Below, one piece after another: positions 35,954-58,930 of a stretch of 64,000 bases of DNA (positions are counted from its first letter, which is position 1; each line of letters opens with the position of its first letter). The stretch lies in IMG/VR virus record IMGVR_UViG_3300029554_000001. One strand, given 5' to 3'. Below the pieces are notes generated by a model. It was not told the DNA's origin and made no database searches. It saw only the letters and a list, made by a program, of their open reading frames with translations. This DNA is from a virus. The translations under genes were made by a program, and so were the position numbers.

Positions 35954-36691
35954 ATGAAACATACTGTTATGGATTAGATTACAGATAAAGAATTTGAACA
36001 AATAGTTAAAAATTCTTATTCTTATCGAGAAGTAGCTGAAAAATGTGGGTATTGTTGTATAAGTGGAGCTTCTTCTAATATTGTGAAAAAGAGAATTTAG
36101 AAATTAAATTTAGATGTTTTTCATTTTAAAAAATCGCTTCATGTTTATCGACCAGATGATGAAATTTTTGTTGAGGATTCAAAAGTAGGGCAGACAGTTT
36201 TAAGAAAACGTTTTTTAGCCTTGAATGTAGTTGAATATAAATGTTCAATATGTGGATAGGAACCATTTTGGAATGGAAAGCCTTTATCGTTAACATTAGA
36301 CCATATAAATGGTAAAAACCATGATAACAGGTTTGACAATTTAAGGTGGGTTTGTCCTAATTGTGATAGATAGCTTCCCACTTTTGGACGGCGTAATGCT
36401 ATTCACGAAGCAAAATATAATTATTGTGTTGATTGTGGAATTGTTATTACTTTTAATGCAACAAGATGTAAAAAATGTGCAGATAAAGTTAAAGCAGAAA
36501 AACAAAAAAATATCAACAAACCAAACAGAGAAGAATTGAAAAAATTAATTAGAGAAAAGAATTTTTTAACTTTAGGAAAAGAGTTTAATGTCTCTGATAA
36601 TACTATTAGAAATTGGTGCGAAAGTTATAATCTTCCAAAAAAAACAAGAGAAATAAGATTAATAAAAGACCAAGATTGGGAATTTTTGTAA
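35954..36691 (+). CDS. HNH homing endonuclease (4 in-frame TAG)
   Basis: LDHINGKNHDNRFDNLRWVCPNCD (HNH), Zn ribbons, and a C-terminal HTH-like NTIRNWC. TAGs at 35975, 36098, 36257 and 36371; codon-by-codon check runs to TAA 36689. Confidence 0.8.
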
Positions 36692-36697
36692 TTAGAT

Positions 36698-36775
36698 GAG
36701 AGTATAGTTCAACTGGTTAGAATGCCGTCTTTACACGTCGGAGGCTTACAGGTTCGAGTCCTGTTACTCTCACCA
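36698..36775 (+). tRNA. tRNA-Val (anticodon TAC)
   Basis: GAGAGTA/TACTCTC, loop TTTACAC, ACAGG-TTCGAGT-CCTGT, ACCA. Confidence 0.85.
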
Positions 36776-36797
36776 TCAGACTTAAATTTAAACAAAA

Positions 36798-36921
36798 GTT
36801 GACACTCACAGCAAATTTATTTTATGTTTTTGGAATAACGTCGTGTAAGGTTCGACTCCTTATTAACAAATCCCTTGAGCAAGGAATAGTTAACCGTGGA
36901 TGGCTAGAAAAAAGTGTCAAG
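36798..36921 (+). ncRNA. ACAGCAA-stem module A (T-arm plus capped-hairpin payload)
   Basis: 5' G-TTGACACT-C-ACAGCAA ... AGTGTCAA-G 3' (8 bp, compensated variant of TAGAC/GTCTA). Payload is the T-arm TAAGG-TTCGACT-CCTTA (36846-36862) then the capped helix TTAAC...GTTAA. Confidence 0.7.
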
Positions 36922-36934
36922 ATTGCTCACTTAT

Positions 36935-37025
36935 GGAGTAGTAAGCCTAATTGGTAAGGCACCAGTTTGCTAAATTGGTAGTAGCTTGAAAGAGCGTACT
37001 GGTTCGAGTCCAGTCTACTTCGCCA
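36935..37025 (+). tRNA. tRNA-Ser (anticodon GCT), class II
   Basis: GGAGTAG/CTACTTC, CCAGT-TTGCTAA-ATTGG, long variable arm, ACTGG-TTCGAGT-CCAGT, GCCA. Confidence 0.85.
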
Positions 37026-37146
37026 CAGAATTTATTATAGCTGCTCGTAGTAAATTCGTAGTATTAGAAGCAGTAAAGGTACGAGTATGGTATCCGGCAC
37101 AGGAGTGGTCGTTAAGGGCGAGATAAAGCTGAACTCCTTTTTATAT

Positions 37147-37265
37147 CCCCATTAGTGTAATGGAGCATTCTCGTTAACTGACGTTGAGTAAACACTAAGG
37201 TAGCTCCTTAGTGATAACAGACACATCGGGAGAGGAAGTTGGTTCGAATCCAATTATGGGGTCCA
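37147..37265 (+). tRNA. tRNA-like gene with a 53-nt insertion in the anticodon loop (anticodon unresolved)
   Basis: Acceptor CCCCATT/TATGGGG (one mismatch), anticodon stem TCTCG (37169-73)/CGGGA (37227-31), T-arm GTTGG-TTCGAAT-CCAAT, TCCA. The insert contains an 8-bp hairpin CACTAAGG/CCTTAGTG. Confidence 0.55.
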
Positions 37266-37400
37266 GTAACCACGATACCGCCTTGAAAAAGGTCGTGGAG
37301 GTTCGCCTAACAGATGGAGTATCGCTTAATGTTAGGATGTGTATATGGCGCACCTAAGTTCAGACCGTTCAGAACCTACAACCATATTAGCGGTGACAGC

Positions 37401-37501
37401 TTGGAGAGACAGCAAATATGCGGCAACTGGTGTAATAATAAAAGTAGCCATGGACAATACTTTTATTATGTTTGGAGTTCGATTCTTCGATGCCGCTCCA
37501 A
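37401..37501 (+). ncRNA. ACAGCAA-led atypical tRNA-like RNA (module variant B)
   Basis: TTGGAG-AG-ACAGCAA-ATAT, then acceptor GCGGCAA/ATGCCGC, a 12-bp hairpin ATAATAAAAGTA/TACTTTTATTAT (loop GCCATGGACAA), T-arm TGGAG-TTCGATT-CTTCG, and T-CCA. The leader TTGGAG pairs with CTCCAA, overlapping the CCA. Confidence 0.5.
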
Positions 37502-37860
37502 AAGACAGAATGGTTAGATATTTCTTGATGTCTTCAAAAAACAAGAAATCCGTAAGGTCTGTACGAAACATTCCTTGGAATACAGTTTAGCTGGTTACAA
37601 TGTATTCGACACTGAACCGCCCTCCAAGTCTGATGGACTGGTAACAATAGAAAGACCGTTGCTTTGCTTAACTGGGTACGTTAAACCCTTATGCAATGAG
37701 CAAAACTGATAATGAAAATGACCAAGATAGTTGAGTGTAAGCCCCTTATAAGGAATAGCCTCTCCTCAGCCAAACCGAGGACAGATAAGTGAAAAGCTGG
37801 TCTGTCAGTAGTTATCAGTTTTTGTTCCTTATATATTTAATAAAATAAAAGGGTGTTTTT
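37502..37860 (+). ncRNA. ORF-free structured region (unknown RNA)
   Basis: GC-richer than the coding DNA. Long-range pairing AACTGATAA (about 37697)/TTATCAGTT (about 37812) and several local hairpins. Track ORFs here lack RBSs. Confidence 0.3.
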
Positions 37861-38181
37861 ATGGATTACATTGATAAGCAGTTTGCTAAACGTGGATATA
37901 AATTAGTACGTCAAAATGAATATGGCGCTTATTATGAAAGAAAAGATAATAAGTTTAATTATACAAGTGAGCTTGATATTATAGCCAAAGCAAATGGTAA
38001 GCATCTTGTTCAGTGTTATGATGCCCAAGTAGTTTATGGTCATCCTGAAAAGGATTCTAACAACTATCGTGTTATGAATGAAGTTGATGGAATTGATGCT
38101 TCTCTTTCTTTTTGGATTTGGTTAAAGTTTCATCAGCTTAAAAGAAAGTATAAATGGGATAAGGTGAAGAAACATGATTGA
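37861..38181 (+). CDS. Hypothetical protein
   Basis: 106-aa ORF after AAAAGGGTG. Confidence 0.6.
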   Translation: MDYIDKQFAKRGYKLVRQNEYGAYYERKDNKFNYTSELDIIAKANGKHLVQCYDAQVVYGHPEKDSNNYRVMNEVDGIDASLSFWIWLKFHQLKRKYKWDKVKKHD

Positions 38182-38446
38182 GACATATATTAAGAAGCCT
38201 GTTGCTGTTCAAGCAATTATTTGGACCGGCGATAATGAGGATGAAATTACAAGCTTTGTTGGTGCTCATTGTTGTGTTACGACAGAGCATACTATGAATG
38301 GCGTTAAGAAGAATCTTATTATGTATACTCTCGAAGGTTATCACTGTGCCTCTGTTGGCGATTATATTGTCAAAGGTATTAAGGGAGAATTTTATCCTGT
38401 TAAGCCTGATATTATGGAATTAACTTATGTTAAGGTGACTGAGTAA
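38174..38446 (+). CDS. Hypothetical protein
   Basis: Overlaps the upstream stop. Confidence 0.6.
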   Translation: MIETYIKKPVAVQAIIWTGDNEDEITSFVGAHCCVTTEHTMNGVKKNLIMYTLEGYHCASVGDYIVKGIKGEFYPVKPDIMELTYVKVTE

Positions 38447-38826
38447 TGGATACTTCTTTGTTTGAAATTGTTGGTCATTATTCTATTTGGACTGGTGAAA
38501 TTACTAAATTCCGAGTTGATGATATTCTAAGAGATAAAGAATTTAATTATTGGTATAAGATAGATTCTGAAACTATTGAATATCCTTGGGAAGTTCGTAT
38601 TTTAGATGCTACTCAAGTTTGGACTAATGCTGACTGTTATCAAGATAGTACATCAGGTAAATGGATTTATAGATGCATTCCTTATGACGGTTTAATCTTT
38701 ACCCTTGAAGCTAATTCTATGACAGAATTGGTAGACCTTATTAGAGATTTTGTTACTCCTCCTGAAGACATGGAAACTAAACTTGTTGCAAGTTCTAATT
38801 ATGATTGTTTTACTCAAAAGTTCTAA
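38446..38826 (+). CDS. Hypothetical protein
   Basis: TAATG coupling. Confidence 0.6.
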   Translation: MDTSLFEIVGHYSIWTGEITKFRVDDILRDKEFNYWYKIDSETIEYPWEVRILDATQVWTNADCYQDSTSGKWIYRCIPYDGLIFTLEANSMTELVDLIRDFVTPPEDMETKLVASSNYDCFTQKF

Positions 38827-38931
38827 TAAAGACTTGACAAAGATTTAAAAGTGTGGTAAGATAAATACATCTTAAGAGAAGAGAAAAACAAAAAACTTCT
38901 CAAAAAGACAAAAATAAATTTTAATAAGTGG

Positions 38932-38960
38932 TTGACATCTTAAAGATGATATGCTATAAT
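38932..38960 (+). promoter_or_regulatory. sigma70-like promoter (extended -10) driving an RNA cluster
   Basis: TTGACA, 17 nt spacer, TGcTATAAT. Confidence 0.65.
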
Positions 38961-38992
38961 AAGTGCATAAATAAAACCTCCTGAATAATAAA

Positions 38993-39109
38993 GTAGACTC
39001 TTACAGCAAATTTTCTAAAGGATAACACAATTGTCTTGAAAACAATCATTAGCGAGTTCGATTCTCGTCAGAGGGCGCTCTGTGGTGAATAATACGCAAA
39101 AGAGTCTAG
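38993..39109 (+). ncRNA. ACAGCAA-stem module 1 (anticodon-arm mimic, T-arm and capped helix)
   Basis: G-TAGACTCT-T-ACAGCAA ... AGAGTCTA-G. Payload is ATTGT-CTTGAAA-ACAAT (39030-39046; same loop as tRNA-Ser-TGA), T-arm GCGAG-TTCGATT-CTCGT, and the capped helix CAGAG-GGCG-CTCTG. Confidence 0.7.
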
Positions 39110-39121
39110 GTTAATTAATTT

Positions 39122-39197
39122 GGTCGGTTAGTCAAGTGGGCTAAGACACTGGCCTTTCACGTCAGTAGCACGGGTTCGAACCCCGTACCGACTACCA
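39122..39197 (+). tRNA. tRNA-Glu (anticodon TTC)
   Basis: GGTCGGT/ACCGACT, CTGGC-CTTTCAC-GTCAG, ACGGG-TTCGAAC-CCCGT, ACCA. Confidence 0.85.
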
Positions 39198-39370
39198 TTA
39201 TTCAAATCAGAAATCCGTTCTTATGATAGTGTGAGTAAGTTTTATCGGAATTAAATGAGGGGAACTTAAATCTATCGAAGGGTTAAGAAATAATTGTTTG
39301 ACGAAAAGTTGTTTCTCCTTTCTCTCTATCTGAGATGAATAATTTCCTTTCTGTAAGATGATATTGTAAA

Positions 39371-39504
39371 GTAGAGACTAACAGCAATTTTAAAATTATG
39401 TTAAAAAACCAAGCTCCCATTCTTCGGTTCGAATCCGAACGTCTTCAGTTGAAGTATGTAGCCAAGTGGTTTAAGGCAGGAGCCCATAATAACAATGTCT
39501 CTAG
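39371..39504 (+). ncRNA. ACAGCAA-stem module 2 carrying a circularly permuted tRNA-Gln-like body
   Basis: G-TAGAGAC-TA-ACAGCAA ... GTCTCTA-G. Internal order: GCTCC, var CATTC, T-arm TTCGG-TTCGAAT-CCGAA, acceptor 3' CGTCTTC, cap AGTTG, acceptor 5' AAGTATG, TA, D-arm GCC-AAGTGGTTTAA-GGC, A, GGAGC. Confidence 0.7.
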
Positions 39505-39511
39505 TATTTAT

Positions 39512-39588
39512 GCCCGTGTAGCTCAGTTGGTAGAAGCATTTGCCTTTTAAGCAAAGGGTCGAGAGTTCGAGTCTCTCCACGAGCACCA
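39512..39588 (+). tRNA. tRNA-Lys (anticodon TTT)
   Basis: GCCCGTG/CACGAGC (C3.A70 mismatch), TTTGC-CTTTTAA-GCAAA, GAGAG-TTCGAGT-CTCTC, ACCA. Confidence 0.85.
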
Positions 39589-39604
39589 AAAGCATTAGTA
39601 CATT

Positions 39605-39669
39605 GTAGACGCTTACAGCAATTTTAATTGTACTTATCTGTTAAATAAGAATACACAAAAAGCGTCTAG
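39605..39669 (+). ncRNA. ACAGCAA-stem module 3 (65 nt; bare anticodon-stem-loop mimic, GUU loop)
   Basis: G-TAGACGCT-T-ACAGCAA ... AGCGTCTA-G. The apical hairpin CTTAT-CTGTTAA-ATAAG (39633-39649) has the same 7-nt loop as tRNA-Asn at 40971. Confidence 0.7.
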
Positions 39670-39696
39670 CCCCTTTCTAAAGGAGAACAATTAAAT

Positions 39697-39781
39697 GGGT
39701 GAGTAGTGAATCGGCAAACACGCTTGACTGTAAATCAAGTTCCTGACGGAGTAGAAGGGTCGGCACCTTCCTCACCCACCA
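39697..39781 (+). tRNA. tRNA-Tyr (anticodon GTA), class II, unusual T-loop
   Basis: GGGTGAG/CTCACCC, CTTGA-CTGTAAA-TCAAG, long variable arm, T-arm GAAGG-GTCGGCA-CCTTC (G replaces T54), ACCA. Confidence 0.8.
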
Positions 39782-39807
39782 ATTTAAAATTTAAAGGAGA
39801 AAATATT

Positions 39808-39978
39808 ATGGGTTTTATGGGAGAAATTTCAGAAAATATTGGTTGGAATGATTGTATTAATTATCTTCTAAAAAATGTTGATAAATTTCAATCAACTTTA
39901 GAAGGTGGAGCTTATGATTATTTTCCAAATGATGAAATTAAAGAAATTTTAAAGAATTTAATTAGACCGGAAATCTAA
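39808..39978 (+). CDS. Hypothetical small protein
   Basis: RBS AAAGGAG before ATG 39808. The upstream part of the track ORF overlaps tRNA-Tyr. Confidence 0.55.
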   Translation: MGFMGEISENIGWNDCINYLLKNVDKFQSTLEGGAYDYFPNDEIKEILKNLIRPEI

Positions 39979-40000
39979 TAAAATTTTTGTTTTAAAACTC

Positions 40001-40029
40001 TTGACAAAATGAAAATTTTATGCTATAGT
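40001..40029 (+). promoter_or_regulatory. sigma70-like promoter (extended -10)
   Basis: TTGACA, 17 nt spacer, TGcTATAGT. Confidence 0.65.
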
Positions 40030-40106
40030 AAAAATATGATAAAGATACAAATTTATTTGTAAGCTAATTGTTCATTTTTTATTGTTCATAAAAGCATTCC
40101 TTTCAA

Positions 40107-40237
40107 GTAGACTCTAACAGCAACTTTACAATCACAAATGCTAAGGACCTGTTTGTTGGAGGTTCGAATCCTTCACTCCCGACCATCGGGAGTTAGCTCA
40201 ACGGATAGAGCAACAGATTTTGTAAAAATGAGTCTAG
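40107..40237 (+). ncRNA. ACAGCAA-stem module 4 carrying a circularly permuted tRNA with encoded ACCA
   Basis: G-TAGACTC-TA-ACAGCAA ... GAGTCTA-G with a second helix TTTACAA/TTGTAAA. Internal order: CCTGT, TTGTT, T-arm GGAGG-TTCGAAT-CCTTC, acceptor 3' ACTCCCG, A-CCA-T, acceptor 5' CGGGAGT (perfect 7 bp), TA, D-arm GCTC-AACGGATA-GAGC, A, ACAGA. Confidence 0.75.
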
Positions 40238-40292
40238 TTAATAAATTGACGCTCCTATTTTCTTCAAATAGGCAAATATAAATTCCTTTCAA

Positions 40293-40410
40293 GTAGACAC
40301 GTACAGCAAAATTACTTGATGCTTTAATGTGGAAAATTAACGATAAGGTTCGACTCCTTAATCTTCTTTAGAAGATGCGTGGTTGCTGGAAATCAAAAAA
40401 ACGTGTCTAG
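40293..40410 (+). ncRNA. ACAGCAA-stem module 5 (anticodon-arm mimic GGA, T-arm and capped helix)
   Basis: G-TAGACACG-T-ACAGCAA ... CGTGTCTA-G. Payload is TTAAT-GTGGAAA-ATTAA (40324-40340), T-arm TAAGG-TTCGACT-CCTTA (identical to module A), and ATCTTCT-TT-AGAAGAT. Confidence 0.7.
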
Positions 40411-40419
40411 GTTAAATAT

Positions 40420-40504
40420 GGCTGAGTGGCGAAATTGGCATACGCAGTTGCTTCAAGTACAACCCTCGAAAGAGATGTGGGTTCAAGTCCCACCTCAGCT
40501 ACCA
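40420..40504 (+). tRNA. tRNA-Leu (anticodon CAA), class II
   Basis: GGCTGAG/CTCAGCT, loop TTCAAGT, long variable arm, GTGGG-TTCAAGT-CCCAC, ACCA. Confidence 0.8.
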
Positions 40505-40970
40505 TAATTGCATCTCAATTGGCAGATAGCGAATGCAATTTATATTAAACTGCCCGATTCAGCAAGGATGGCTAAAGCCTTGTCGGTGCTCCATATATTT
40601 GAACTCATTTTTAGTCCGTTAAGCTAAAACCCTCTCTCCCGACCGAAGAAGGTGTAGAATACAAGTTAATGGTATTCGAATGGGAAGAACACCAACTATA
40701 AGATAAGGCAACTTACCAAGGTGCAAATATGGCAAGAAAACCTTTTGGACGAAATTGGTGCCGTGCTTACGGGGATAGATAGTTGCGCATCTATCTAAAC
40801 AAAAACTCTGATTACTGCAACTAAATCGGGGTAGGTATTGAGGTTATGGGTCATGTAACCTTAAAACACAATAAGCCGAGCATACTGCTTATTGCTCCTA
40901 ACAGGTGGTGCTGAGGATGAACAACAAAAGCCAAGTTATAGAGTTCTTGTAAAAAACTCTATTGTTATTT
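40505..40970 (+). ncRNA. ORF-free ~465-nt structured region (unknown RNA)
   Basis: No ORF in any frame in the track. GC-richer than flanks. Local helices include ATTGCAT/ATGCAAT and GATAGAT/ATCTATC. Confidence 0.3.
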
Positions 40971-41047
40971 GGAAGTATAGCTCAGTTGGCTAGAGCGCTT
41001 GGCTGTTAACCAAGATGTCACAAGTTCAAGTCTTGTTATTTCCGCCA
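40971..41047 (+). tRNA. tRNA-Asn (anticodon GTT)
   Basis: GGAAGTA/TATTTCC, CTTGG-CTGTTAA-CCAAG, ACAAG-TTCAAGT-CTTGT, GCCA. Confidence 0.9.
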
Positions 41048-41048
41048 A

Positions 41049-41125
41049 AAGTGGAGGGTGTAGGTTCGAGTCCTGCCCTGCTCGTGGGAAACCCTTGCAG
41101 GAAGCTGCTAGGTACAGCGCCACTT
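41049..41125 (+). ncRNA. Circularly permuted tRNA-like domain (no ACAGCAA stem)
   Basis: Closing stem AAGTGG/CCACTT. Order: var AGGGT, T-arm GTAGG-TTCGAGT-CCTGC, capped helix CCTGC...GCAGG, AA, D-arm-like GCTG-CTAGGTA-CAGC, G. Starts 1 nt after the CCA of tRNA-Asn. Confidence 0.5.
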
Positions 41126-41181
41126 AGAATTTCTTTCACCTTATTACGCGAAATATGGGATTGAGATGTTGCTTTAGTCGG

Positions 41182-41207
41182 GTTCTTTTACAGCAGAAAA
41201 TAAGAAC
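41182..41207 (+). ncRNA. Minimal hairpin bearing a TTACAGCAG loop (possible degenerate module)
   Basis: GTTCTT-TTACAGCAGAAAAT-AAGAAC. Confidence 0.3.
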
Positions 41208-41399
41208 GCACCTGTTTAATTGGGTTTTTTAGTTCAGTAAAAACAAGAAAAACCTCGGTTGTTTAGAAATTTTCTTCTGATATTGAATGAAAACATTTAG
41301 AGAATTCTCTCATTGCAATGCCGAAAGGTAGCAAGATATGAAAACAGCTAATTGGTGAACATATTTGCTACCGAGTAGGGATAAGAGAGAATTAAATAT

Positions 41400-41475
41400 G
41401 CTTTGGTAGCTCAATTGGTAGAGCAGTGGACTGAAAATCCACGTGTAGCCAGTTCGATTCTGGCCTAAAGCACCA
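41400..41475 (+). tRNA. tRNA-Phe (anticodon GAA)
   Basis: GCTTTGG/CTAAAGC, GTGGA-CTGAAAA-TCCAC, GCCAG-TTCGATT-CTGGC, ACCA. Confidence 0.9.
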
Positions 41476-41476
41476 T

Positions 41477-41560
41477 TGCTGGCGAGTGAAACGGATATAT
41501 AAATCACGCTTGGCTCATACCCAAGTAATAGTGGGTTCGACTCCCATGCTTCAGCAACCA
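41477..41560 (+). tRNA. tRNA with CAT anticodon (Met or Ile2), irregular acceptor/T junction and oversized D-loop
   Basis: CTTGG-CTCATAC-CCAAG is a perfect anticodon arm. T-arm GTGGG-TTCGACT-CCCAT. Acceptor TGCTGGC/TTCAGCA has 2 extra nt (GC) after the T-stem. ACCA. Confidence 0.55.
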
Positions 41561-41584
41561 AAAAATAAAAGGAAGTAAATTCTA

Positions 41585-41893
41585 ATGACTATTAATTTTA
41601 AGATTTACATTTATTAGACAGCAAATAATAAAAAGTTTGTTTATAGATGTCCTCATTGTAATAAAGGGATAATGCAAGTAGCAGAAACTAAAACTGCTAA
41701 AGATGAAACTAATTTTTTATCTTGGAATTATACTTGCCCAGTTTGTAAGAAGCAGATTGTCTCTATTGAAAAAGACGGTTGTTCTTCTTTTAAAAGTGTG
41801 TTCCCTCCAATGACTCAAATTAGTGATAAAGAATTTACTGATATTAAAAAGGATGTAGGAGAGAAGGGTATTTATCTATTCTCTGAAACATAA
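41585..41893 (+). CDS. Zn-ribbon protein (1 in-frame TAG)
   Basis: ATG 41585 and TAG 41615 are in frame with the track ORF at 41672. CPHC...CPVC. Confidence 0.55.
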
Positions 41894-41896
41894 AAT

Positions 41897-41992
41897 GCTA
41901 GCGTACAGAAATTGGTTATAACTGCCTAGACTTGAAATCTTGTGTGTTGACGTTGAATCAGCCTGTGGGTTCGAATCCTACCGCTAGCGCCA
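41897..41992 (+). tRNA. tRNA-Ser (anticodon TGA), class II
   Basis: GCTAGCG/CGCTAGC, CTAGA-CTTGAAA-TCTTG, long variable arm, GTGGG-TTCGAAT-CCTAC, GCCA. Confidence 0.8.
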
Positions 41993-42010
41993 TTAAACGG
42001 AGTCTTTAAT

Positions 42011-42217
42011 ATGAAAATTTGGAATGGAAATGATTTTGAATATCTTGGTTATTTTGTAAAAAATAATAAGAAAGCCAAATATTTTGAGGTTTTTGATAAG
42101 AATGGCAATCTTCTTTTCAAACAAACTAATTGGGGTCATGCTTGTGTGACTTCAGTTAAACATAAGATTGAAGACTTTCATAAAAAATATGGACAGGAGA
42201 TTAAAAATGAACAATAA
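42011..42217 (+). CDS. Hypothetical small protein
   Basis: 68-aa ORF. Confidence 0.55.
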   Translation: MKIWNGNDFEYLGYFVKNNKKAKYFEVFDKNGNLLFKQTNWGHACVTSVKHKIEDFHKKYGQEIKNEQ

Positions 42218-42722
42218 TAATTCAATCGAAATCGAACGTAAGTTTTTAATCTCTGGTTTTCCTAAAGTCGATTTTGATGAAGTCGGAATTGTTAAAACTA
42301 TCTATATTAATATCAAATATAATTCTGATGGAAAAATTTTACAGGAAATTCGTATAAGACGTTGGTTTGAAAGTGGCAAAGGTTATCGTCCAGATGCTCT
42401 TACTTTTAAATCTGGTGGTACTTTAACTCGTACTGAAATTGAAACAAATCTTACAGATAATTCTTTGTTTGACTGTTTTAATGAACTTGGTTATAATCCT
42501 ATTGTAAAAGATTATAGAGGTCTTTACAATAATGGCTATTTAATTGAATTCAATCTTGTAGATGGCGGTACTGATACTGCTTTCTATTATGCCGAAGTTG
42601 AATTTGATTCTGAGGAAGAAGCTAACAGTTATGTTTGGCCTTTTCCTGAAGTATTTATTGAGGAAGTTACTAATAAGCCTGAATATAAGATGGCAAATTA
42701 TTGGAAACGTACTCGTGGATAA
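42207..42722 (+). CDS. CYTH-domain (triphosphate tunnel metalloenzyme) protein
   Basis: N-terminal IEIERKFLI (ExExK signature). RBS GGACAGGAG before ATG 42207. Confidence 0.7.
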   Translation: MNNNNSIEIERKFLISGFPKVDFDEVGIVKTIYINIKYNSDGKILQEIRIRRWFESGKGYRPDALTFKSGGTLTRTEIETNLTDNSLFDCFNELGYNPIVKDYRGLYNNGYLIEFNLVDGGTDTAFYYAEVEFDSEEEANSYVWPFPEVFIEEVTNKPEYKMANYWKRTRG

Positions 42723-42746
42723 GGACTATTGTTTAGTCCTTTATTT

Positions 42747-42822
42747 GCTGGATTAGCTCAGTTGGTAGAGCGATTGATTTGTAATCAATAGGTCGGGGGT
42801 TCGAATCCGTCATCCAGCTCCA
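42747..42822 (+). tRNA. tRNA-Thr (anticodon TGT)
   Basis: GCTGGAT/ATCCAGC, ATTGA-TTTGTAA-TCAAT, T-loop TTCGAAT, TCCA. Confidence 0.85.
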
Positions 42823-42857
42823 CAAATTTTCTTGTCAAATAAAAGAGGATTTTTATT

Positions 42858-43031
42858 ATGGATGAATTTTTAATCTCAGAAGAGAATATGAAAATCTTTG
42901 AGCAGATTAAAGCTTTAAAGAAAGATAAATATACCATGAAAGATGTTAATACCATTTGCGAATTGCTTGGGGTTAAATTGTTTTGGTATCAAAAGTTTGT
43001 TCTTCTTCATCTTCTTAATGATAAAAATTAA
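42858..43031 (+). CDS. Possible 57-aa protein
   Basis: RBS AAAAGAGGA before ATG 42858. Below the track length cutoff. Confidence 0.4.
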   Translation: MDEFLISEENMKIFEQIKALKKDKYTMKDVNTICELLGVKLFWYQKFVLLHLLNDKN

Positions 43032-43042
43032 ATGAGGTACAT

Positions 43043-43324
43043 ATGCCGATAAGAAACGGAAACAATGATATTTATAGTGACATTTTCTTCCAATATTTGA
43101 ATGAGAATGAAGAGAAGATGATTGATGAAGTGGCTTCTAAGCTTGAAAAACACAATCCAGTTCTTTATCCTAAAGATGTTTCAGTAGCAATTTCGAAATC
43201 CATTTATAGTGATTATAAGAAATATCTTTATGAACATGGATATACTTTTAAGAAAGAATACTTAGAAGAATACTTAGAAGAATACTTTAAAAATTTAACA
43301 GAAGAAATTCTTAAAAACTCTTGA
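43043..43324 (+). CDS. Hypothetical protein
   Basis: 93-aa ORF containing the internal repeat EEYLEEYLEEY. Confidence 0.55.
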   Translation: MPIRNGNNDIYSDIFFQYLNENEEKMIDEVASKLEKHNPVLYPKDVSVAISKSIYSDYKKYLYEHGYTFKKEYLEEYLEEYFKNLTEEILKNS

Positions 43325-43404
43325 CAAAAGAAATTGAATGTGATATACTAAATTATAGTTTCAAATCTATTATCCAGTTTTATTAAATTTTAAGTGTGAT
43401 TAAA

Positions 43405-43638
43405 ATGAGTAAACAGATTAAATTGACTCCTTTACAAAAATTAGAGTTTATCAAAATGTGGTTGGGAAAGGATTTCTTTTTTCCTAAGCAACGTGAAGAA
43501 AAACTTTTAGATTTGTTAAAGGATGAAAAAGAAATCAAATGCTCAAAAGACTATAATTCTTACTTAGCTACTTTAAAATTTCTTGAACAAGTTCTTACAG
43601 ATGCTCAAACATGGGATGAATTTGTTGAGGATGAATAA
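43405..43638 (+). CDS. Hypothetical protein
   Basis: ATG 43405 lies downstream of TTGACA..TATACT. Confidence 0.55.
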   Translation: MSKQIKLTPLQKLEFIKMWLGKDFFFPKQREEKLLDLLKDEKEIKCSKDYNSYLATLKFLEQVLTDAQTWDEFVEDE

Positions 43639-43658
43639 AAAGAAATTTTAAAAAGTAC

Positions 43659-43687
43659 TTGACAAGATGAAGAGTATATGTTATACT
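43659..43687 (+). promoter_or_regulatory. sigma70-like promoter driving the distal RNA cluster
   Basis: TTGACA, 17 nt spacer, TATACT. Confidence 0.65.
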
Positions 43688-43719
43688 TAAGATGTGGTTG
43701 AGAGATACAACCTAAAAAT

Positions 43720-43815
43720 GCGGGAGTTAAGGAGAGGCCACCTTACCACATTCCGAGTGTGGGTTAAATCCGTCAAGAACGGTGCTCGCGGGTTCGAATC
43801 CCGTCTCCCGCTCCA
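43720..43815 (+). tRNA. Class II (long variable arm) tRNA with apparent CCG anticodon
   Basis: GCGGGAG/CTCCCGC, D-arm AAGG..CCTT, CCACA-TTCCGAG-TGTGG, about 25-nt variable arm with CCGT/ACGG stem, GCGGG-TTCGAAT-CCCGT, TCCA. Confidence 0.6.
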
Positions 43816-43942
43816 TTCCTTAGTAGTTTAAAAGACGATAAACAAATTAAAATACCCTTCAGTCGGAAAGCCTCTAATGAGTATAGAATGGCACTCAAGT
43901 AGGGAGTTCTGGATGGGCGAATCGGAACCACCAGCTAAGGAA
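43816..43942 (+). ncRNA. Cloverleaf-like element closed by an 8-bp stem
   Basis: TTCCTTAG/CTAAGGAA closing stem, then TA and D-arm-like GTTT..AAAC. Shares the 13-mer AGTAGTTTAAAAG (43822-43834) with the insert of tRNA-Ile (44638-44650). Confidence 0.35.
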
Positions 43943-43950
43943 AAATATAT

Positions 43951-44110
43951 AGGGGTGTAGCCAAGCGGTAAGGCAAGGGACTTTCAAGAATTAATTCAAG
44001 TAGAATCCAGTGGATTAGTTTAAAGACTGTTTCGACGGTATATTGGTTCAAGTCCAATATTCTTGACCAGACTCCCTGACTCGAAGGTTCAAATCCTTCC
44101 ATCCCTGCCA
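43951..44110 (+). tRNA. tRNA-Gln (anticodon TTG) interrupted by a 85-nt tRNA-like insert
   Basis: AGGGGTG/CATCCCT, Gln-type D-arm GCC-AAGCGGTAA-GGC, anticodon stem AGGGA (43976-80)/TCCCT (44073-77), GAAGG-TTCAAAT-CCTTC, G73, CCA. Loop halves CTTT (43981-84) and GAC (44070-72) sum to CTTTGAC. Confidence 0.75.
43985..44069 (+). tRNA. Nested tRNA-like gene inside the tRNA-Gln anticodon loop
   Basis: Perfect acceptor CAAGAAT/ATTCTTG, TA, D-arm ATTC-AAGTA-GAAT, stem CAGT/ACTG with a 14-nt loop, T-arm ATTGG-TTCAAGT-CCAAT, then A-CCA. Confidence 0.6.
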
Positions 44111-44139
44111 TAAGTAACAATTCAAATTATCGTTTACGT

Positions 44140-44284
44140 GTAGACGCTTACAGCAAACAATAATAAAATCAAATTCTAGTAAAAAAGATATAAATTAATA
44201 TTTAAAAAAGATTTTGGGTATTGTTCCTTGCTAATTAGTTTATGATGCTTTCATGATTCTCCTTTGTTAGTATTATGCGTCTAG
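44140..44284 (+). ncRNA. ACAGCAA-stem module 6 (AT-rich ~120-nt payload)
   Basis: G-TAGACGC-TT-ACAGCAA ... GCGTCTA-G. Confidence 0.6.
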
Positions 44285-44291
44285 TTTATAA

Positions 44292-44358
44292 GTGCCGTAC
44301 CAAGGTTGGGGTCGCTCGACGGAGGGCTTAAGAAGGGGTTCGAATCCCCCACGGTGCA
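44292..44358 (+). ncRNA. 67-nt tRNA-like element (acceptor and T-arm only)
   Basis: GTGCCGT/ACGGTGC (2 G.U pairs), T-arm (A)GGGG-TTCGAAT-CCCC(C). No convincing anticodon arm. Confidence 0.35.
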
Positions 44359-44414
44359 AGATTGAATTGTTTGGAGTACTACAAACAAGATGGTAAGTTA
44401 TTGATGATTTAAAA

Positions 44415-44479
44415 GTAAACCCTTACAGCAATTTAACTACTTAATTTTTGCTTGAAAAAAGATTATGGATAGGGTTTAG
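44415..44479 (+). ncRNA. ACAGCAA-stem module 7 (65 nt)
   Basis: G-TAAACCCT-T-ACAGCAA ... AGGGTTTA-G (G>A in the 5' strand compensated by C>T in the 3' strand). U/A-stem hairpin containing the CTTGAAA string (44451-57). Confidence 0.65.
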
Positions 44480-44495
44480 ATTTGTAATGTTAAAA

Positions 44496-44585
44496 GTAGA
44501 CACTAACAGCAATTTTAAAAAGTATTCTATATATATATTAAAATGCCAAAATTTAATTGTACATATTAACTTTTAAAGTGTCTAG
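44496..44585 (+). ncRNA. ACAGCAA-stem module 8 (AT-rich payload)
   Basis: G-TAGACACT-A-ACAGCAA ... AGTGTCTA-G. Confidence 0.6.
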
Positions 44586-44595
44586 GATTTTATAT

Positions 44596-44731
44596 AGGAC
44601 GGTAGCTTAATCGGTTTAAGCCTCCGACTTATCTGAGAGTAGTTTAAAAGTAAAACTGTTAATGTAAGTGCAAGACTTGCCTTTCAGACCAAATCGGAAG
44701 ATTGTGAGTTCGAGTCTCACCCGTCCCACCA
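44596..44731 (+). tRNA. tRNA-Ile (anticodon TAT) interrupted by a 59-nt minihelix insert
   Basis: AGGACGG/CCGTCCC (A1.C72 mismatch), D-arm GCTT..AAGC, anticodon stem TCCGA (44623-27)/TCGGA (44694-98), GTGAG-TTCGAGT-CTCAC, ACCA. Loop halves CTTAT (44628-32) and AA (44692-93) sum to CTTATAA. Confidence 0.75.
44633..44691 (+). ncRNA. Nested acceptor-stem/D-arm minihelix ending in ACCA
   Basis: CTGAGAG/CTTTCAG (7 bp, one G.U), TA, GTTT-AAAAGTA-AAAC, short hairpin, then A-CCA. Confidence 0.55.
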
Positions 44732-44749
44732 TTTATAATTAAAAATAAA

Positions 44750-44819
44750 GTAGACTCTTACAGCGATTACTTAGAGACTTGTGATGTGGGATTACATATG
44801 TTTTGAAAAATGAGTCTAG
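44750..44819 (+). ncRNA. ACAGCAA-stem module 9 (loop variant ACAGCGA)
   Basis: G-TAGACTC-TT-ACAGCGA ... GAGTCTA-G with internal hairpin TGTGAT-GTGGG-ATTACA. Confidence 0.6.
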
Positions 44820-44828
44820 CTTTATTAA

Positions 44829-44905
44829 GCGCCTGTAGTCTAATTGGATAAAACCGCACTCTTCTAAAGTGTATCTTATGAGTTCGAATCTCGTCAGGCG
44901 TGCCA
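44829..44905 (+). tRNA. tRNA-Arg (anticodon TCT)
   Basis: GCGCCTG/CAGGCGT, GCACT-CTTCTAA-AGTGT, ATGAG-TTCGAAT-CTCGT, GCCA. Confidence 0.85.
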
Positions 44906-44934
44906 CTTAAGGTCATTTGACTTTATTTAACATT

Positions 44935-45005
44935 GCGGCGTAGTATAATGGTCAATGCGCACGGCTCTAACCCGTGAAATGCTCGTTCGATTCGAAGTCG
45001 CCGCT
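44935..45005 (+). tRNA. Candidate amber-suppressor tRNA (anticodon CTA)
   Basis: Perfect anticodon arm CACGG-CTCTAAC-CCGTG (44960-44976). Acceptor GCGGCG/CGCCGC, TA, D-arm GTA-TAATGGTCAA-TGC. T-loop TTCGATT with an imperfect stem GCTCG/CGAAG. No encoded CCA. Confidence 0.6.
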
Positions 45006-45112
45006 GAAATATCTAAGGAAAAGTATTTTTCCTTTTGACATATAAGCAGAATAAACAAAAAATTAAAATAAAAACTAAAGTAAAACAAAGAAATTAAAGG
45101 AGACAAAAAATT

Positions 45113-45568
45113 ATGTGTGACAACTGCAAGAACGACATTTCCCGACCGTCTAATTCTTCTATTGCTTATGGTGTTTATGAGAGTGGTGGCGTAGTCAAGG
45201 CTGAGGTAACTGATACTGCATTTGATGCAATGCATGTTATTACTCGTCTTTGTGAAAAGGCTGATATGAAGACTATTTCTCTCGAAGGTATTTGGGAGAA
45301 CACTCTTCTTGAAAACAGCTATCGTGGTAAGGCTAAGGTAAACCATGCTGATGGTGACAAGTTCGTTGAAGATATTGGTAAGGAATTTGCTCGTGGCAAG
45401 GCTCTTGAAAAGTATCATCGAGCATTTGACCGTAAGATTCTTGCAATGCTTCTTGATGCACGAGTTCTGGTTGCAACCATTGAACATTATTGTGCTAAGA
45501 AGAGCATCAACACTGAAAAGATTCCTTCGATTGAAGCGATTTCTAAGAAGCGCTTTGGTTGTAAGTAA
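45113..45568 (+). CDS. Hypothetical protein
   Basis: RBS AAAGGAG upstream; 151 aa. Confidence 0.65.
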   Translation: MCDNCKNDISRPSNSSIAYGVYESGGVVKAEVTDTAFDAMHVITRLCEKADMKTISLEGIWENTLLENSYRGKAKVNHADGDKFVEDIGKEFARGKALEKYHRAFDRKILAMLLDARVLVATIEHYCAKKSINTEKIPSIEAISKKRFGCK

Positions 45569-56609: not shown

Positions 56610-57080
56610 ATGGTTGATATTAAATGGCTTTAGACTCAAGAAGGATAGAAAGCTTATTAGACTTGGATAAGGAAATTAGCAAACCGAGCAGAAGATAGGA
56701 CAGATATTCCAATTTTAGTAGATACCAACGGAGAAATTTAGGTTTGGGTAACAATAAATAAAAAATATCTATCTAAAGAGCAATTTGAAAAACTTGCTGA
56801 TAAATCTGATGGTGAAATTACTACAAAATTAGAATTTAAAACAAAAGATATTATTATAAGAGAGCTTACTTCTATCGCAAAGAGCAGAGAGGCTTTAGCA
56901 GATAATGAAGATGAAAGAGAACTTTTATGTCCCCTTGTTTCATTGTTTCAAGGAATAGAAGATGCTATTACTAATGATATTTGCTATAAAGCTCAAAATG
57001 CTAAACAGCTTTTTATAAACAATTTCGAAAAAAATTTAGGAAAAAACGAAAATAATTCTAATAACCTCTTGACAAACTAA
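56610..57080 (+). CDS. Hypothetical protein (4 in-frame TAG)
   Basis: 156 codons from ATG 56610 to TAA 57078, with TAGs at 56631, 56646, 56658 and one further downstream. No other stop in frame. Confidence 0.55.
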
Positions 57081-57097
57081 GATACATCTGTTATAGT
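57069..57097 (+). promoter_or_regulatory. sigma70-like promoter for the module-10/Ro-like transcript
   Basis: TTGACA (57069-74), 17 nt spacer, TATAGT (57092-97). Confidence 0.65.
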
Positions 57098-57114
57098 ATC
57101 TATTGTCATAAGTA

Positions 57115-57177
57115 GTTAGACTCTCACAGCAAACTACAAAAAACTTTTATTTTGGAAAAAGGACAAAAAGAGTCTAG
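57115..57177 (+). ncRNA. ACAGCAA-stem module 10, in the 5' leader of the Ro60-like gene
   Basis: GT-TAGACTCT-C-ACAGCAA (57117-57132) ... AGAGTCTA-G (57169-57177). Followed by the hairpin TCCTTT-AGA-AAAGGA (57178-57192), which includes the AAGGAG RBS. Confidence 0.65.
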
Positions 57178-57199
57178 TCCTTTAGAAAAGGAGAAAATT

Positions 57200-58930
57200 A
57201 TGTATAACTACAACAATCCTAACAAGAAGAATAACACTAAGGCTTGGGCTCCTAAGCCTGAAAAGCCTGTTACTAAGTCCAACCGAGTTAGCCGTAAGGC
57301 TTCTTTCATGGACAAGGTTGAGAATACTGCCAAGGGCTACTACACTCAGGTTGCAATTCCTTCTCTTCCTGCTGATAAGCAGTACACTTCTAATGGTGCT
57401 ATTGCCTACAAGTCCTCTGGTTCTGCTCTTCTTGATATCAATACTTCCATTACCGCTCTTCGTAGTCTTCCTGATGGTAATATTGTGAAGAAGTTCCGTG
57501 CAGCTTATTCTGAGAATCCTCGTCTCGCTATTCGTTGGCTGTTCTATGCTGGCGATATCCGTGAGGGTCAGGGTGAGCGCCGTCTCTTCCAGATTTGCCT
57601 TAAGGATATGATGAACAATGGTGGTGCTCAGATTGTGGCGAACCTGATTCCTATGATTCCTGAGTATTCTCGTTGGGATTATATCTATGTTGTCATGGAT
57701 AATCCTACTACTAAGCCTGTTGTTCGTGAACTGATTCGTAAGCAGTGGAAGGAAGATATGGCTAATATGAAGAAGGGCAAGTCCATTAGCCTTATGGCGA
57801 AGTGGCTTGATAGTGCTTCTTCTCACAGCCATGATACTCGTAAGCGTGGTCTTAAGACTATGGATATGCTCGGTCTGACTGAACGTGAGTATCGTAAGGG
57901 GCTGTCTGCTCTCCGTAAGCACCTTGATGTTGTTGAGCGTAAGATGTCTTCTCAGAATTGGCAGAGCATTAATTACGAGACTGTTCCTTCTAAGGCAAAC
58001 CTTAATTACAACAAGGCTTTCCTTCGTAATGATGAGGAGCGCCGTCGTGCCTATTTGAACGCTCTTACTAAGGGCGAGGCAAAGATTAATTCTTCCGTAT
58101 CTAATCCTTGTGACATTGTTCACAAGTATTGCGAGAATGATTGGGGTACTTCTCCTCATTCTTATGATGCCGCCCTTGAAGGCATGTGGAAGGCTCTTCC
58201 CAATCTTGTAACCGATGATAGTTCCACTATTGTTGTTGCCGATGGTTCTGGTTCTATGTGTGCTACCGTGGGTCGTACTCGTATGACTGCTCTTGAGGTT
58301 GCTAACTCTCTTGCAATTTACTTTGCAGAGCGTGCTAAGGGTGCATACAAGGGTCGTTACATTACTTTCTCTGCACGTCCTCAGATGGTTAATGTTAATC
58401 ATGACTCTTTGCGTGCAAATCTTAGAGAAGCTGCTCGTCATAGTGAGGTTGCTAATACCAACCTTGAAGCAGTATTTGACCTGATTCTTGATACTGCAAT
58501 TAAGAATCATTCTCCTCAGAGTGATTTGCCTAAGAATATTCTGATTATCAGTGATGGTGGTTGGGATTCTATGGTAAATATCCGTAATGTTAGCACTGGC
58601 AGTAATGGTTACGGTGGTTATGGTTATTGGGGTTATAACAGCACTCGTGCTACTGCTAAGGAAGCTCCTGCTTTCCTTAAGTCCATTGAGCAGAAGTACA
58701 AGAACGCTTCCTATGAGTGTCCAAAAATTTGTTTTTGGAATGTGTGCGGAAATGGTAACACTAATAATGGTCTTCCTATGACCAAGAATGACTATGGTAT
58801 CATGGTCAGCGGGTTTAGTGTTCAAACTTTGAAAATGATTCTCAGTGGCAAGACTAATCCTTGGGATGCACTTATGGAAGTGGTCTTGGATAAGCGTTAT
58901 GACAAGATTGAGGAGCTTGCTTTTAAGTAA
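57200..58930 (+). CDS. Ro60-like protein: helical N-domain (DUF2828/TROVE-like) plus vWA domain with MIDAS
   Basis: GAIAYKSSGSALLD, ENPRLAIRWLFYAGDIREGQGERRLF, MIDAS VVADGSGSM. C-terminal ICFWNV...NNGLP...YGIMVSGFSVQTLKMI parallels Ro60 LIVCGM..NGF.IADP.DRGMLDMCGFDTGALDVI. Confidence 0.65.
   Translation: MYNYNNPNKKNNTKAWAPKPEKPVTKSNRVSRKASFMDKVENTAKGYYTQVAIPSLPADKQYTSNGAIAYKSSGSALLDINTSITALRSLPDGNIVKKFRAAYSENPRLAIRWLFYAGDIREGQGERRLFQICLKDMMNNGGAQIVANLIPMIPEYSRWDYIYVVMDNPTTKPVVRELIRKQWKEDMANMKKGKSISLMAKWLDSASSHSHDTRKRGLKTMDMLGLTEREYRKGLSALRKHLDVVERKMSSQNWQSINYETVPSKANLNYNKAFLRNDEERRRAYLNALTKGEAKINSSVSNPCDIVHKYCENDWGTSPHSYDAALEGMWKALPNLVTDDSSTIVVADGSGSMCATVGRTRMTALEVANSLAIYFAERAKGAYKGRYITFSARPQMVNVNHDSLRANLREAARHSEVANTNLEAVFDLILDTAIKNHSPQSDLPKNILIISDGGWDSMVNIRNVSTGSNGYGGYGYWGYNSTRATAKEAPAFLKSIEQKYKNASYECPKICFWNVCGNGNTNNGLPMTKNDYGIMVSGFSVQTLKMILSGKTNPWDALMEVVLDKRYDKIEELAFK

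Follow-up and report, generated by a model that had tools for sequence, protein, structure and literature searches.

A 64-kilobase (kb) stretch of viral DNA from the IMG/VR record IMGVR_UViG_3300029554_000001 (hereafter the window, meaning this whole stretch, which was analyzed on both strands) carries 11 copies of a module in which the paired 5′ and 3′ ends of the element enclose a short ACAGCAA core and a variable payload. Most copies lie within an array of transfer RNA (tRNA) genes, and one lies in the leader of the open reading frame (ORF) 57200-58930, whose product is predicted to belong to a divergent Ro60-like family. Because the same handle stands beside a Ro60-like gene in many unrelated phages, we consider that the modules are most likely an undescribed class of Y-RNA-like partner RNAs of this phage protein, a reading to which we give a probability of about 0.7. 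That the elements are real structured RNAs of one family is, in our judgment, highly probable.

Modules of the window and their frame

Regions 36500-45200 and 56900-57500 were read directly, and the window was scanned with a mechanical pattern search. All 11 elements listed by a sequence-only reading of this DNA were found in place by these two routes, every one of them on the + strand. They are given here from the first paired base through the 3′ G, with lengths in nucleotides (nt) or base pairs (bp) and with scores from a covariance model built on other phages that is described below.

36799..36921, + strand, module 1: stem TTGACACT/AGTGTCAA, core ACAGCAA, 3′ G; payload with T-arm TAAGGTTCGACTCCTTA and an acceptor-like helix broken by a small hairpin; partial covariance-model match
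38994..39109, + strand, module 2: stem TAGACTCTT/AAGAGTCTA; payload with the anticodon-arm-like hairpin ATTGT-CTTGAAA-ACAAT, a T-arm and a capped acceptor-like helix; promoter at 38932-38960 (12/12 consensus) about 30 nt upstream; 29.8 bits, E 7.5e-5
39372..39504, + strand, module 3: stem TAGAGAC/GTCTCTA; payload a permuted tRNA-like body with 3′ half, 4-bp capped acceptor, Gln-like D-arm and anticodon stem GGAGC/GCTCC
39606..39669, + strand, module 4: stem TAGACGCTT/AAGCGTCTA; short AT-rich payload; 55 bits, E 3.3e-11
40108..40237, + strand, module 5: stem TAGACTC/GAGTCTA; payload a complete circularly permuted tRNA; behind a promoter at 40001-40029
40294..40410, + strand, module 6: stem TAGACACGT/ACGTGTCTA; T-arm and capped helix; 24.5 bits, E 0.0017
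44141..44284, + strand, module 7: stem TAGACGC/GCGTCTA; long AT-rich payload
44416..44479, + strand, module 8: stem TAAACCCT/AGGGTTTA; short payload; 37.1 bits, E 1.1e-6
44497..44585, + strand, module 9: stem TAGACACT/AGTGTCTA; AT-rich payload; 36.5 bits, E 1.5e-6
44751..44819, + strand, module 10: stem TAGACTC/GAGTCTA; variant core ACAGCGA; 31.2 bits, E 3.4e-5
57117..57177, + strand, module 11: stem TAGACTCT/AGAGTCTA; in the leader of the Ro60-like gene; 41.1 bits, E 1.1e-7
37400..37503, + strand, looser copy, doubtful: CTTGGAG-AG-ACAGCAA, perhaps paired over 6 bp with CTCCAA near 37497, in a long non-coding stretch; no covariance-model match

The terminal stem comprises 7-9 perfect Watson-Crick pairs in each of the 11 copies. 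Its 5′ arm starts exactly 9 nt ahead of ACAGCAA, with 0-2 nt between stem and core, and the payload that separates the core from the complementary 3′ arm measures 35-125 nt. The 3′ arm is, as had been claimed, an exact complement followed directly by G in 11/11 copies; the G said to precede the 5′ arm is present in ten copies and replaced by T at 57117. A strict definition required the core ACAGCAA, an arm fixed at −9 and 7 or more perfect pairs within 300 nt; it yielded 11 matches in the window on the + strand and 0 on the − strand, against a control average of 0.38 matches per window, both strands combined, for 104 permutations of the core. These strict matches include the looser site at 37400 and omit 44751, which escapes the definition because its core varies (ACAGCGA). 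A looser pattern in IUPAC (International Union of Pure and Applied Chemistry) code gave 14 matches versus 5.1 expected, a number reached by 0/100 shuffles.

The covariance model, R1, was built from 45 modules of distant phages only, none of which has a TAGAC stem and whose locus proteins are at most about 56% identical. With filters off, R1 recovered 7/11 window copies at E ≤ 0.002, in a match at 39604-39671 (55 bits, 3e-11) and in matches starting at 57115, 44414, 44495, 44749, 38992 and 40292, and its ten best matches in the 64 kb all fell among the elements already listed. The four copies with the longest payloads scored low because of the long insertion. The looser variants reported at 37401 and 41182 drew no support from the model (E > 10) and are doubtful. 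A search of the INPHARED phage collection returned no DNA relative of the window except for an 80-nt tRNA match.

The statement that the elements sit behind strong promoters was correct for 38994, 40108 and 57117, the only copies directly behind near-consensus sigma-70 promoters. It did not hold for the remaining copies, which sit inside the tRNA array; five start 17-30 nt 3′ of a tRNA and seven stop 7-27 nt 5′ of one.

The handle and a Ro60-like protein in other phages

We retrieved 80 viral loci through the protein alone (44-99% identity, 1.63 megabases). A stem/ACAGCAA module lies at most 450 nt upstream of the gene in 66/80 of them, often as 2-4 copies in tandem. With the strict definition, 157 modules in the 80 loci share the strand of the gene and 3 lie on the opposite strand, permuted cores averaging 4.5; for 84 of the 157, the distance from module end to the Ro60-like gene downstream is at most 250 nt. 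Orthologous module copies occupy fixed positions in related genomes. In the reverse search, IMG/VR was scanned with the RNA pattern alone. Beyond close relatives of the window, the loci L010, L030, L047, L091, L097 and L110 carry real modules, and each of them encodes a Ro60-like protein within the retrieved stretch.

A tblastn search found the Ro60-like family in 695 cultured phage records, which include Felix O1-like, A511/P100-like, Twort-like, Campylobacter and mycobacterial phages. The arrangement in five cultured phages of unrelated groups was as follows.

Listeria A511: three tandem modules that follow a promoter and precede gp57
Escherichia JH2 (Felixounavirus): three or four modules just downstream, among tRNAs, one with a permuted tRNA-like body
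Mycobacterium Moostard (GC-rich): three modules directly after a gene annotated ‘Ro-like RNA binding protein’, the middle one YrlA-like, 37.9 bits
Campylobacter CP8: two modules upstream
Staphylococcus Alsa_3 (L205), 4521-5040: two modules downstream of the Ro60-like gene, with cores ACAGCCA and ACAGCTA

The cores of Alsa_3 imply that the sixth core position is free in some lineages and hence that exact-core searches undercount. The A511 locus (L203) also has, at 904-1500, a non-coding region of about 550 nt behind a consensus promoter, about 1 kb upstream of the modules and gp57. This region gave no Rfam match and showed no similarity to the long non-coding stretches of the window; by position, it probably corresponds to the abundant non-coding transcripts of phage CKA15 (PMC12282133).

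The anatomy of the family was derived from 152 non-redundant modules, the consensus being W-A-G-R-C-N-C-N-N-ACAGCAA-(U-rich) ... (A-rich)-N-N-G-N-G-Y-C-U-W-G. Of these modules, 90% have the 3′ G, which is taken to be unpaired since the base before the 5′ arm is almost never C. The outer stem is common to the paralogues of one genome and differs between lineages: it is TAGAC in the window, and TAAGC, TGGAC, AGACC or AAGAC/GAGAC/AAGGC in other lineages, the core and the 3′ G being retained. In the alignment of 45 modules from distant phages, all 7 stem pairs change on both sides, a count that is only descriptive because the modules were selected for perfect stems. Stems with a single nonstandard pair are more telling, as this pair is G.U in 21/51 compared to 16% in controls while A.C stays at background, which argues that the helix matters in the + strand RNA and not in DNA. 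Together with the strand bias, these results agree with the earlier view that the stem is selected as an RNA helix. ACAGCAA had been described as single-stranded, and its predicted unpaired probability is indeed 0.63-0.81. The U-rich tract that follows the core might pair with the A-rich tract that precedes the 3′ arm, but such a second conserved helix was discarded, as it did not rise above shuffled controls.

The partner gene and its promoter are located as follows.

57200..58930, + strand: Ro60-like gene, 576 amino acids; Pfam DUF2828 + DUF7788 + vWA_2
57069..57097, + strand: promoter-like TTGACA-17-TATAGT, extended by TG, ahead of both module 11 and the Ro60-like gene

Structure prediction of the product was carried out using AlphaFold with an alignment of 32 homologues. 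The predicted secondary structure is helical from about residue 32 to 332 and continues with an alpha/beta vWA domain at about 343-550, in agreement with the Ro60/TROVE plan of a vWA domain behind a ring of HEAT-like helical repeats. The sole significant Foldseek matches in the PDB were 9kop, 9nen and 9nep_A (probability 1.0, E 5e-6 to 2e-4), with alignments of 544-578 columns that cover the full length; the next matches had E > 0.01. The top structural match, 9kop, is Ro60 of Thermus phage phiLo, and 9nen and 9nep_A are human Ro60, with and without misfolded pre-5S ribosomal RNA. Pfam vWA_Ro60 was matched by 11/32 homologues (best E 1.1e-5), Pfam TROVE had no match at E ≤ 10 in ORF 57200-58930 and its homologues, and the mycobacteriophage homologues (about 32% identity) are annotated ‘Ro-like RNA binding protein’. 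A Ro60-like fold is thus predicted for the product of ORF 57200-58930, a link made only through fold comparison and vWA_Ro60.

In the leader of this gene, transcription probably begins about 12 nt before module 11, and 22 nt separate the 3′ G of the module from the ATG. Directly 3′ of the module, the hairpin UCCUUU-AGA-AAAGGA (57177-57195) encloses the Shine-Dalgarno sequence. The payload of module 11 also holds AAAGGAC, an alternative partner for GUCCUUU, and a similar trio occurs in locus L143; the leader hairpin and this alternative pairing possibly form a translational switch.

Payloads and their relation to known RNAs

The payload of 40108-40237 follows the order anticodon-stem 3′ strand, variable loop, T-arm, acceptor 3′ strand, A73-CCA, 1 nt, acceptor 5′ strand, U8, D-arm and anticodon 5′ strand with loop AUUUUGU. 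ARAGORN, when given the self-joined element, called a 74-nt tRNA whose 56-nt ‘intron’ is the module frame. Among the window copies, the 3′ half of a tRNA precedes its 5′ half in 40108-40237 only. A T-arm with a short loop-capped acceptor-like helix, a partial tRNA-like domain, is found in 36799, 38994, 39372 and 40294, with an additional anticodon-arm-like hairpin in 38994; 39606, 44141, 44416, 44497, 44751 and 57117 have AT-rich payloads without tRNA features. The payloads are therefore much as they were originally described, with one true circularly permuted tRNA, several T-arms with capped acceptor-like helices and AT-rich sequence in the others. An interpretation of all copies as permuted tRNAs was rejected, since ARAGORN found a tRNA in 1/11 duplicated elements only.

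Similar features recur in other phages: about 20 modules there resemble permuted tRNAs, and a tRNA-like body that is not permuted is enclosed in a few. In the multi-phage module set, 41% of payloads contain a 5-bp stem with a 7-nt YUNNNRN loop, compared to 4.6% of shuffled payloads; these hairpins include T-loops and the anticodon-like loops CUUUUAA, CUGCUAA and CUUGAAA.

At gathering thresholds, Rfam reported tRNAs only in the whole window. At E ≤ 5, no ribozyme family (hammerhead, twister, pistol, hatchet, HDV) fell on the elements, and YrlA was the sole non-tRNA family to touch any of them, with a match at 40131-40229 (42.2 bits, model positions 1-114, that is, the full model) that did not reach the gathering score of 69 bits. 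Copies of the window other than 40108 had no YrlA match at E ≤ 5. The Rfam search suggested earlier thus returned no clean match to a described non-tRNA family.

Ro60/Rsr recognizes Y RNAs by the stem into which their ends pair and by a short motif on its 5′ strand, while other proteins, such as PNPase, are tethered by the remainder of the RNA. Y RNAs adjoin the Ro60 gene on the same strand and mimic tRNA, as do the bacterial YrlA RNAs, one of which is cut by RNase P and given CCA (PMC4201824). The Ro60-binding motifs are GGUCCGA in animals, GNCGAAN0-1G in bacteria and CGAA in phage phiLo (PMC4201824, PMC12135203). Like YrlA (Chen et al. 2014, PMC4201824; RF02553), the modules are small RNAs with paired 5′ and 3′ ends, a short conserved purine-rich motif on the 5′ strand beside the stem and a variable part that mimics tRNA completely in 40108 and partly in four other window copies (T-arm, D-arm, loop-closed acceptor; sometimes, putatively, acceptor-cleavable with a CCA end), and they share the strand of a neighbouring Ro60-like gene, frequently as multiple copies; module 40108 moreover aligns over the whole YrlA model. 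They differ from YrlA in carrying ACAGCAA instead of GNCGAAN0-1G, in reaching 42 bits against a threshold of 69, in payloads that are mostly not full tRNA-like domains, in a linked protein of the DUF2828/DUF7788 family that is missed by the Pfam TROVE model, and in their number, up to about a dozen copies per genome spread through the tRNA array. As the canonical Ro60-binding motif is replaced by ACAGCAA, we regard them as a sister class and not as members of Rfam YrlA. The sequence-only reading had placed them closest to YrlA-type Y RNAs, which is right insofar as YrlA is the sole non-tRNA Rfam match, a Ro60-like gene lies behind one copy and the handle travels with the protein, and is inexact in that the canonical motif is absent.

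Phage systems offer a closer parallel. Thermus phage phiLo encodes two RNAs (Yrl1/Yrl2) upstream of its Ro60 gene; its Ro60 binds both and engages the host PNPase (PMC12135203; 9KOP). Here, too, a phage Ro60 homologue has putative partner RNAs directly upstream, and in both cases a 5′-3′ stem flanks an internal loop with a short conserved motif. In phiLo, however, the motif is CGAA, there are two RNAs and no tRNA array, and binding and PNPase recruitment were shown experimentally, whereas binding of the modules is proposed from genomic association and predicted fold. In Listeria phage CKA15, the top phage transcripts are non-coding regions at most 2 kb upstream of an Rsr-like gene, which the authors suggested to be Y RNAs (PMC12282133). 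In coliphage Bas63, the Ro60-like gp130, encoded upstream of a tRNA block, counters the ppl defence system, and Y RNAs were surmised by the authors to be concealed within that block (PMC11482910). These phages belong to the same groups as A511 (P100/A511-like) and JH2 (Felixounavirus), respectively. Judging from the A511 and JH2 homologues, their Ro60-like proteins appear to be of the same family as ours; for Bas63 gp130, this link rests on synteny with JH2. Neither paper (PMC12282133, PMC11482910) names the RNAs or the motif. In the literature searched on phage permuted tRNAs, DUF2828, Ro-like proteins and phage Y RNAs, no description of the ACAGCAA handle was found, although subscription journals lay mostly outside this scope and an earlier description is possible.

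The region between the modules shows other unusual features. Three tRNA-like genes (37147-37265, 43951-44110 and 44596-44731) have insertions of 46-85 nt at the anticodon loop according to ARAGORN with introns allowed; two of the three have Rfam tRNA matches, and one has the anticodon UCA. These insertions are too short for group I introns, and the one at 43951 holds a second T-arm. The tRNA at 44935-45005 has the anticodon CUA, of amber-suppressor type, and is called ‘Pyl’ by ARAGORN; this tRNA and the tRNA-like gene with anticodon UCA hint that stop codons are reassigned in some of the phage genes. Between modules 7 and 8, a sequence at 44294-44362 is tRNA-like, with acceptor-like GTGCCGT/ACGGTGC pairing and a good T-arm (GGGGTTCGAATCCCC), and is called by neither ARAGORN nor Rfam. 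Finally, non-coding stretches at 37040-37820, 40510-40960, 41050-41400 and 43820-43950 are richer in G+C than their surroundings. They gave no Rfam family at threshold and weak matches only (wcaG at 40880-40975, YrlA at 41052-41122), and may be further structured RNAs.

Elsewhere in the window, Pfam identified a DNA polymerase III alpha subunit (DnaE-like) in two ORFs, 262-1353 and 2102-4642, separated by about 750 nt of non-coding sequence, perhaps an intron or some other kind of intervening element. This gap contains a weak site that resembles the modules, TAGTCGAGA-ACAGCAG ... CGACTA-G (1764-1919). A kinase+HD protein (Pnkp-like, 7622-8587) adjoins a T4 Rnl1-like RNA ligase (8623-9981), a pair that suggests tRNA repair, and a WGR+PARP-like protein is encoded at 27025-28284.

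Proposed function, rival explanations and significance

We propose that each module is a small non-coding RNA that closes through a stem of 7-9 bp made of its own 5′ and 3′ ends. The constant handle, namely this stem, the unpaired ACAGCAA just inside it on the 5′ strand and the unpaired G that follows it, would be the docking site of the phage Ro60-like ring protein encoded by ORF 57200-58930, on which the RNAs would be loaded as Y RNAs are on Ro60/Rsr. The enclosed payload, variable and often a piece of tRNA (permuted tRNA, T-arm with closed acceptor, anticodon-arm-like hairpin), may serve as an exchangeable adaptor or decoy toward tRNA-binding host or phage factors. Most copies would be transcribed within the tRNA array and released by the cuts that process the flanking tRNAs (RNase P, RNase Z, exonucleases), and opening of the acceptor by RNase P could give payloads of the 40108 type a CCA end. 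The leader copy at 57117 might be a co-expressed partner RNA or, perhaps, a site through which the protein represses its own translation. This feedback is the weakest point of the proposal, and the leader arrangement is not conserved in all lineages.

Several observations weigh against this interpretation. In 14/80 loci, no module was found within 450 nt upstream of the gene under the definition used; these loci may carry variant cores or place their RNAs elsewhere. Most window copies lie 12-20 kb from the Ro60-like gene, so that linkage within the window concerns one copy only. None of the motifs GGUCCGA, GNCGAAN0-1G and CGAA is present at the equivalent place in the modules, which has ACAGCAA instead, and the single Rfam YrlA match is sub-threshold and driven by the tRNA-like part. 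The structure model of the protein is only moderate (mean predicted local distance difference test score, pLDDT, of 67.5; Foldseek template modelling score, TM, of 0.35-0.53). Searches of PDB sequences with phmmer and profiles of the Ro60-like protein retrieved no Ro60, hence its designation as a divergent Ro60-like family. The covariation counts come from a selection for perfect stems, which leaves the enrichment tests as the only non-circular ones. Finally, the connection to the protein, which we hold to be probable, comes from genomic association and fold similarity, binding being what we infer from them.

We weighed this proposal against three other explanations. The handle could be a cis-acting processing or regulatory hairpin for another factor, such as a host or phage endoribonuclease, RNA polymerase (put-/nut-like antitermination) or a translational repressor; it would punctuate or stabilize the transcripts of the tRNA array and leader, and proximity to the Ro60-like gene would be incidental or reflect regulation of that gene only. 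The location of copies in transcribed spacers, often 7-27 nt before the 5′ end of a tRNA, is compatible with such a role, as are the copy in a 5′ leader beside a Shine-Dalgarno hairpin, the seemingly unstructured payloads of about half the copies and the lineage-specific outer stem, which would be expected of the site of a co-evolving enzyme. We nevertheless find this explanation unlikely, given the association with one protein family across phages otherwise little alike and the tandem arrays of 2-4 copies by the gene even where the retrieved stretch has few or no tRNA genes (the Moostard locus has one annotated tRNA). Furthermore, the payloads are enriched in tRNA-arm mimics, of which a cleavage signal needs none, and RNase III requires a longer stem than one of 7 bp.

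Alternatively, the elements could be circularly permuted or split tRNA genes, with paired ends in the role of the bulge-helix-bulge of archaeal and red-algal permuted tRNAs; the ends would be cut and ligated and the resulting circle opened at the acceptor end to give working tRNAs. Circularly permuted tRNA genes reportedly occur in Cyanidioschyzon merolae and some archaea (work ascribed to Soma et al. 2007 and Chan et al. 2011). Module 40108 resembles these genes in having the tRNA 3′ half upstream of the 5′ half, transcript ends that pair and a short acceptor linker; it is a complete permuted tRNA in which A73-CCA is joined via one nucleotide to position 1. The roughly 20 permuted tRNA-like modules of other phages, and the RNA ligase (T4 Rnl1-like) and kinase+HD protein encoded in the window, also speak for this possibility, which we yet consider improbable for the family. 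Payloads without tRNA features make up 6/11 of the window copies, the acceptor helices of several others are only 4-5 bp long, loop-capped and devoid of CCA, and the frame interrupts the tRNA body variably: 40108 is broken inside its anticodon loop, 38994 where the D arm meets the anticodon arm. The junction leaves 9 or more nt of the 5′ strand unpaired and 0-3 of the 3′ strand, unlike the bulge-helix-bulge (3-nt bulge/4-bp helix/3-nt bulge), a tRNA is missing from most copies, the same frame stands in a messenger RNA leader (57117), and a partial scan of ten large ORFs detected no splicing endonuclease. A still more remote alternative, which we regard as hardly credible, is that of DNA-level repeats, either miniature inverted-repeat transposable elements or attC-like single-strand recombination sites, the arms of which have to remain complementary. 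These would account for terminal inverted repeats around a variable ‘cargo’, for many copies per genome and for an outer arm sequence conserved within a genome. They would not account for the extreme strand bias along transcription (157 versus 3), for an asymmetric invariant core on one arm only, for stems that tolerate G.T and not A.C, for orthologous copies at fixed positions in related genomes or for a payload that aligns to the YrlA RNA model, and neither target-site duplications nor an associated transposase or integrase were found.

Our preferred reading therefore remains that the modules are partner RNAs of the Ro60-like protein. They are probably the RNA family that belongs to the phage Ro60 proteins of the DUF2828 type, and they stand out by their copy number and their modular payloads of tRNA fragments. 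With them, the missing partner RNAs of the widespread phage Ro60-like genes gain a candidate, and the Y RNAs suspected in CKA15 and Bas63 gain, through A511 and JH2, a sequence definition in the stem/ACAGCAA handle. This short searchable handle opens the way to the annotation of such RNAs in hundreds of genomes, and it explains why the tRNA regions of phages show ‘empty’ spacers and small ORFs that were mis-called. At least one Ro60-like homologue acts as an anti-defence factor (PMC11482910). More tentatively, and with well under even odds, one Ro60-like ring protein could take up, through the universal handle, a library of tRNA-fragment payloads: anticodon arms that differ in specificity, T-arm/acceptor tops and whole permuted tRNAs that include CCA. 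So loaded, it would act as a programmable platform for decoy or repair when host defences, for instance anticodon nucleases, attack tRNA. If true, such a platform would explain both the interleaving with tRNA genes and the anti-defence score of the Felixounavirus homologue. The handle may also serve as a scaffold for the display of RNA hairpins on a protein ring. Should the partnership with the Ro60-like protein be true, the concept of Y RNAs would broaden to one protein with many adaptors, the payloads of which copy single tRNA arms.

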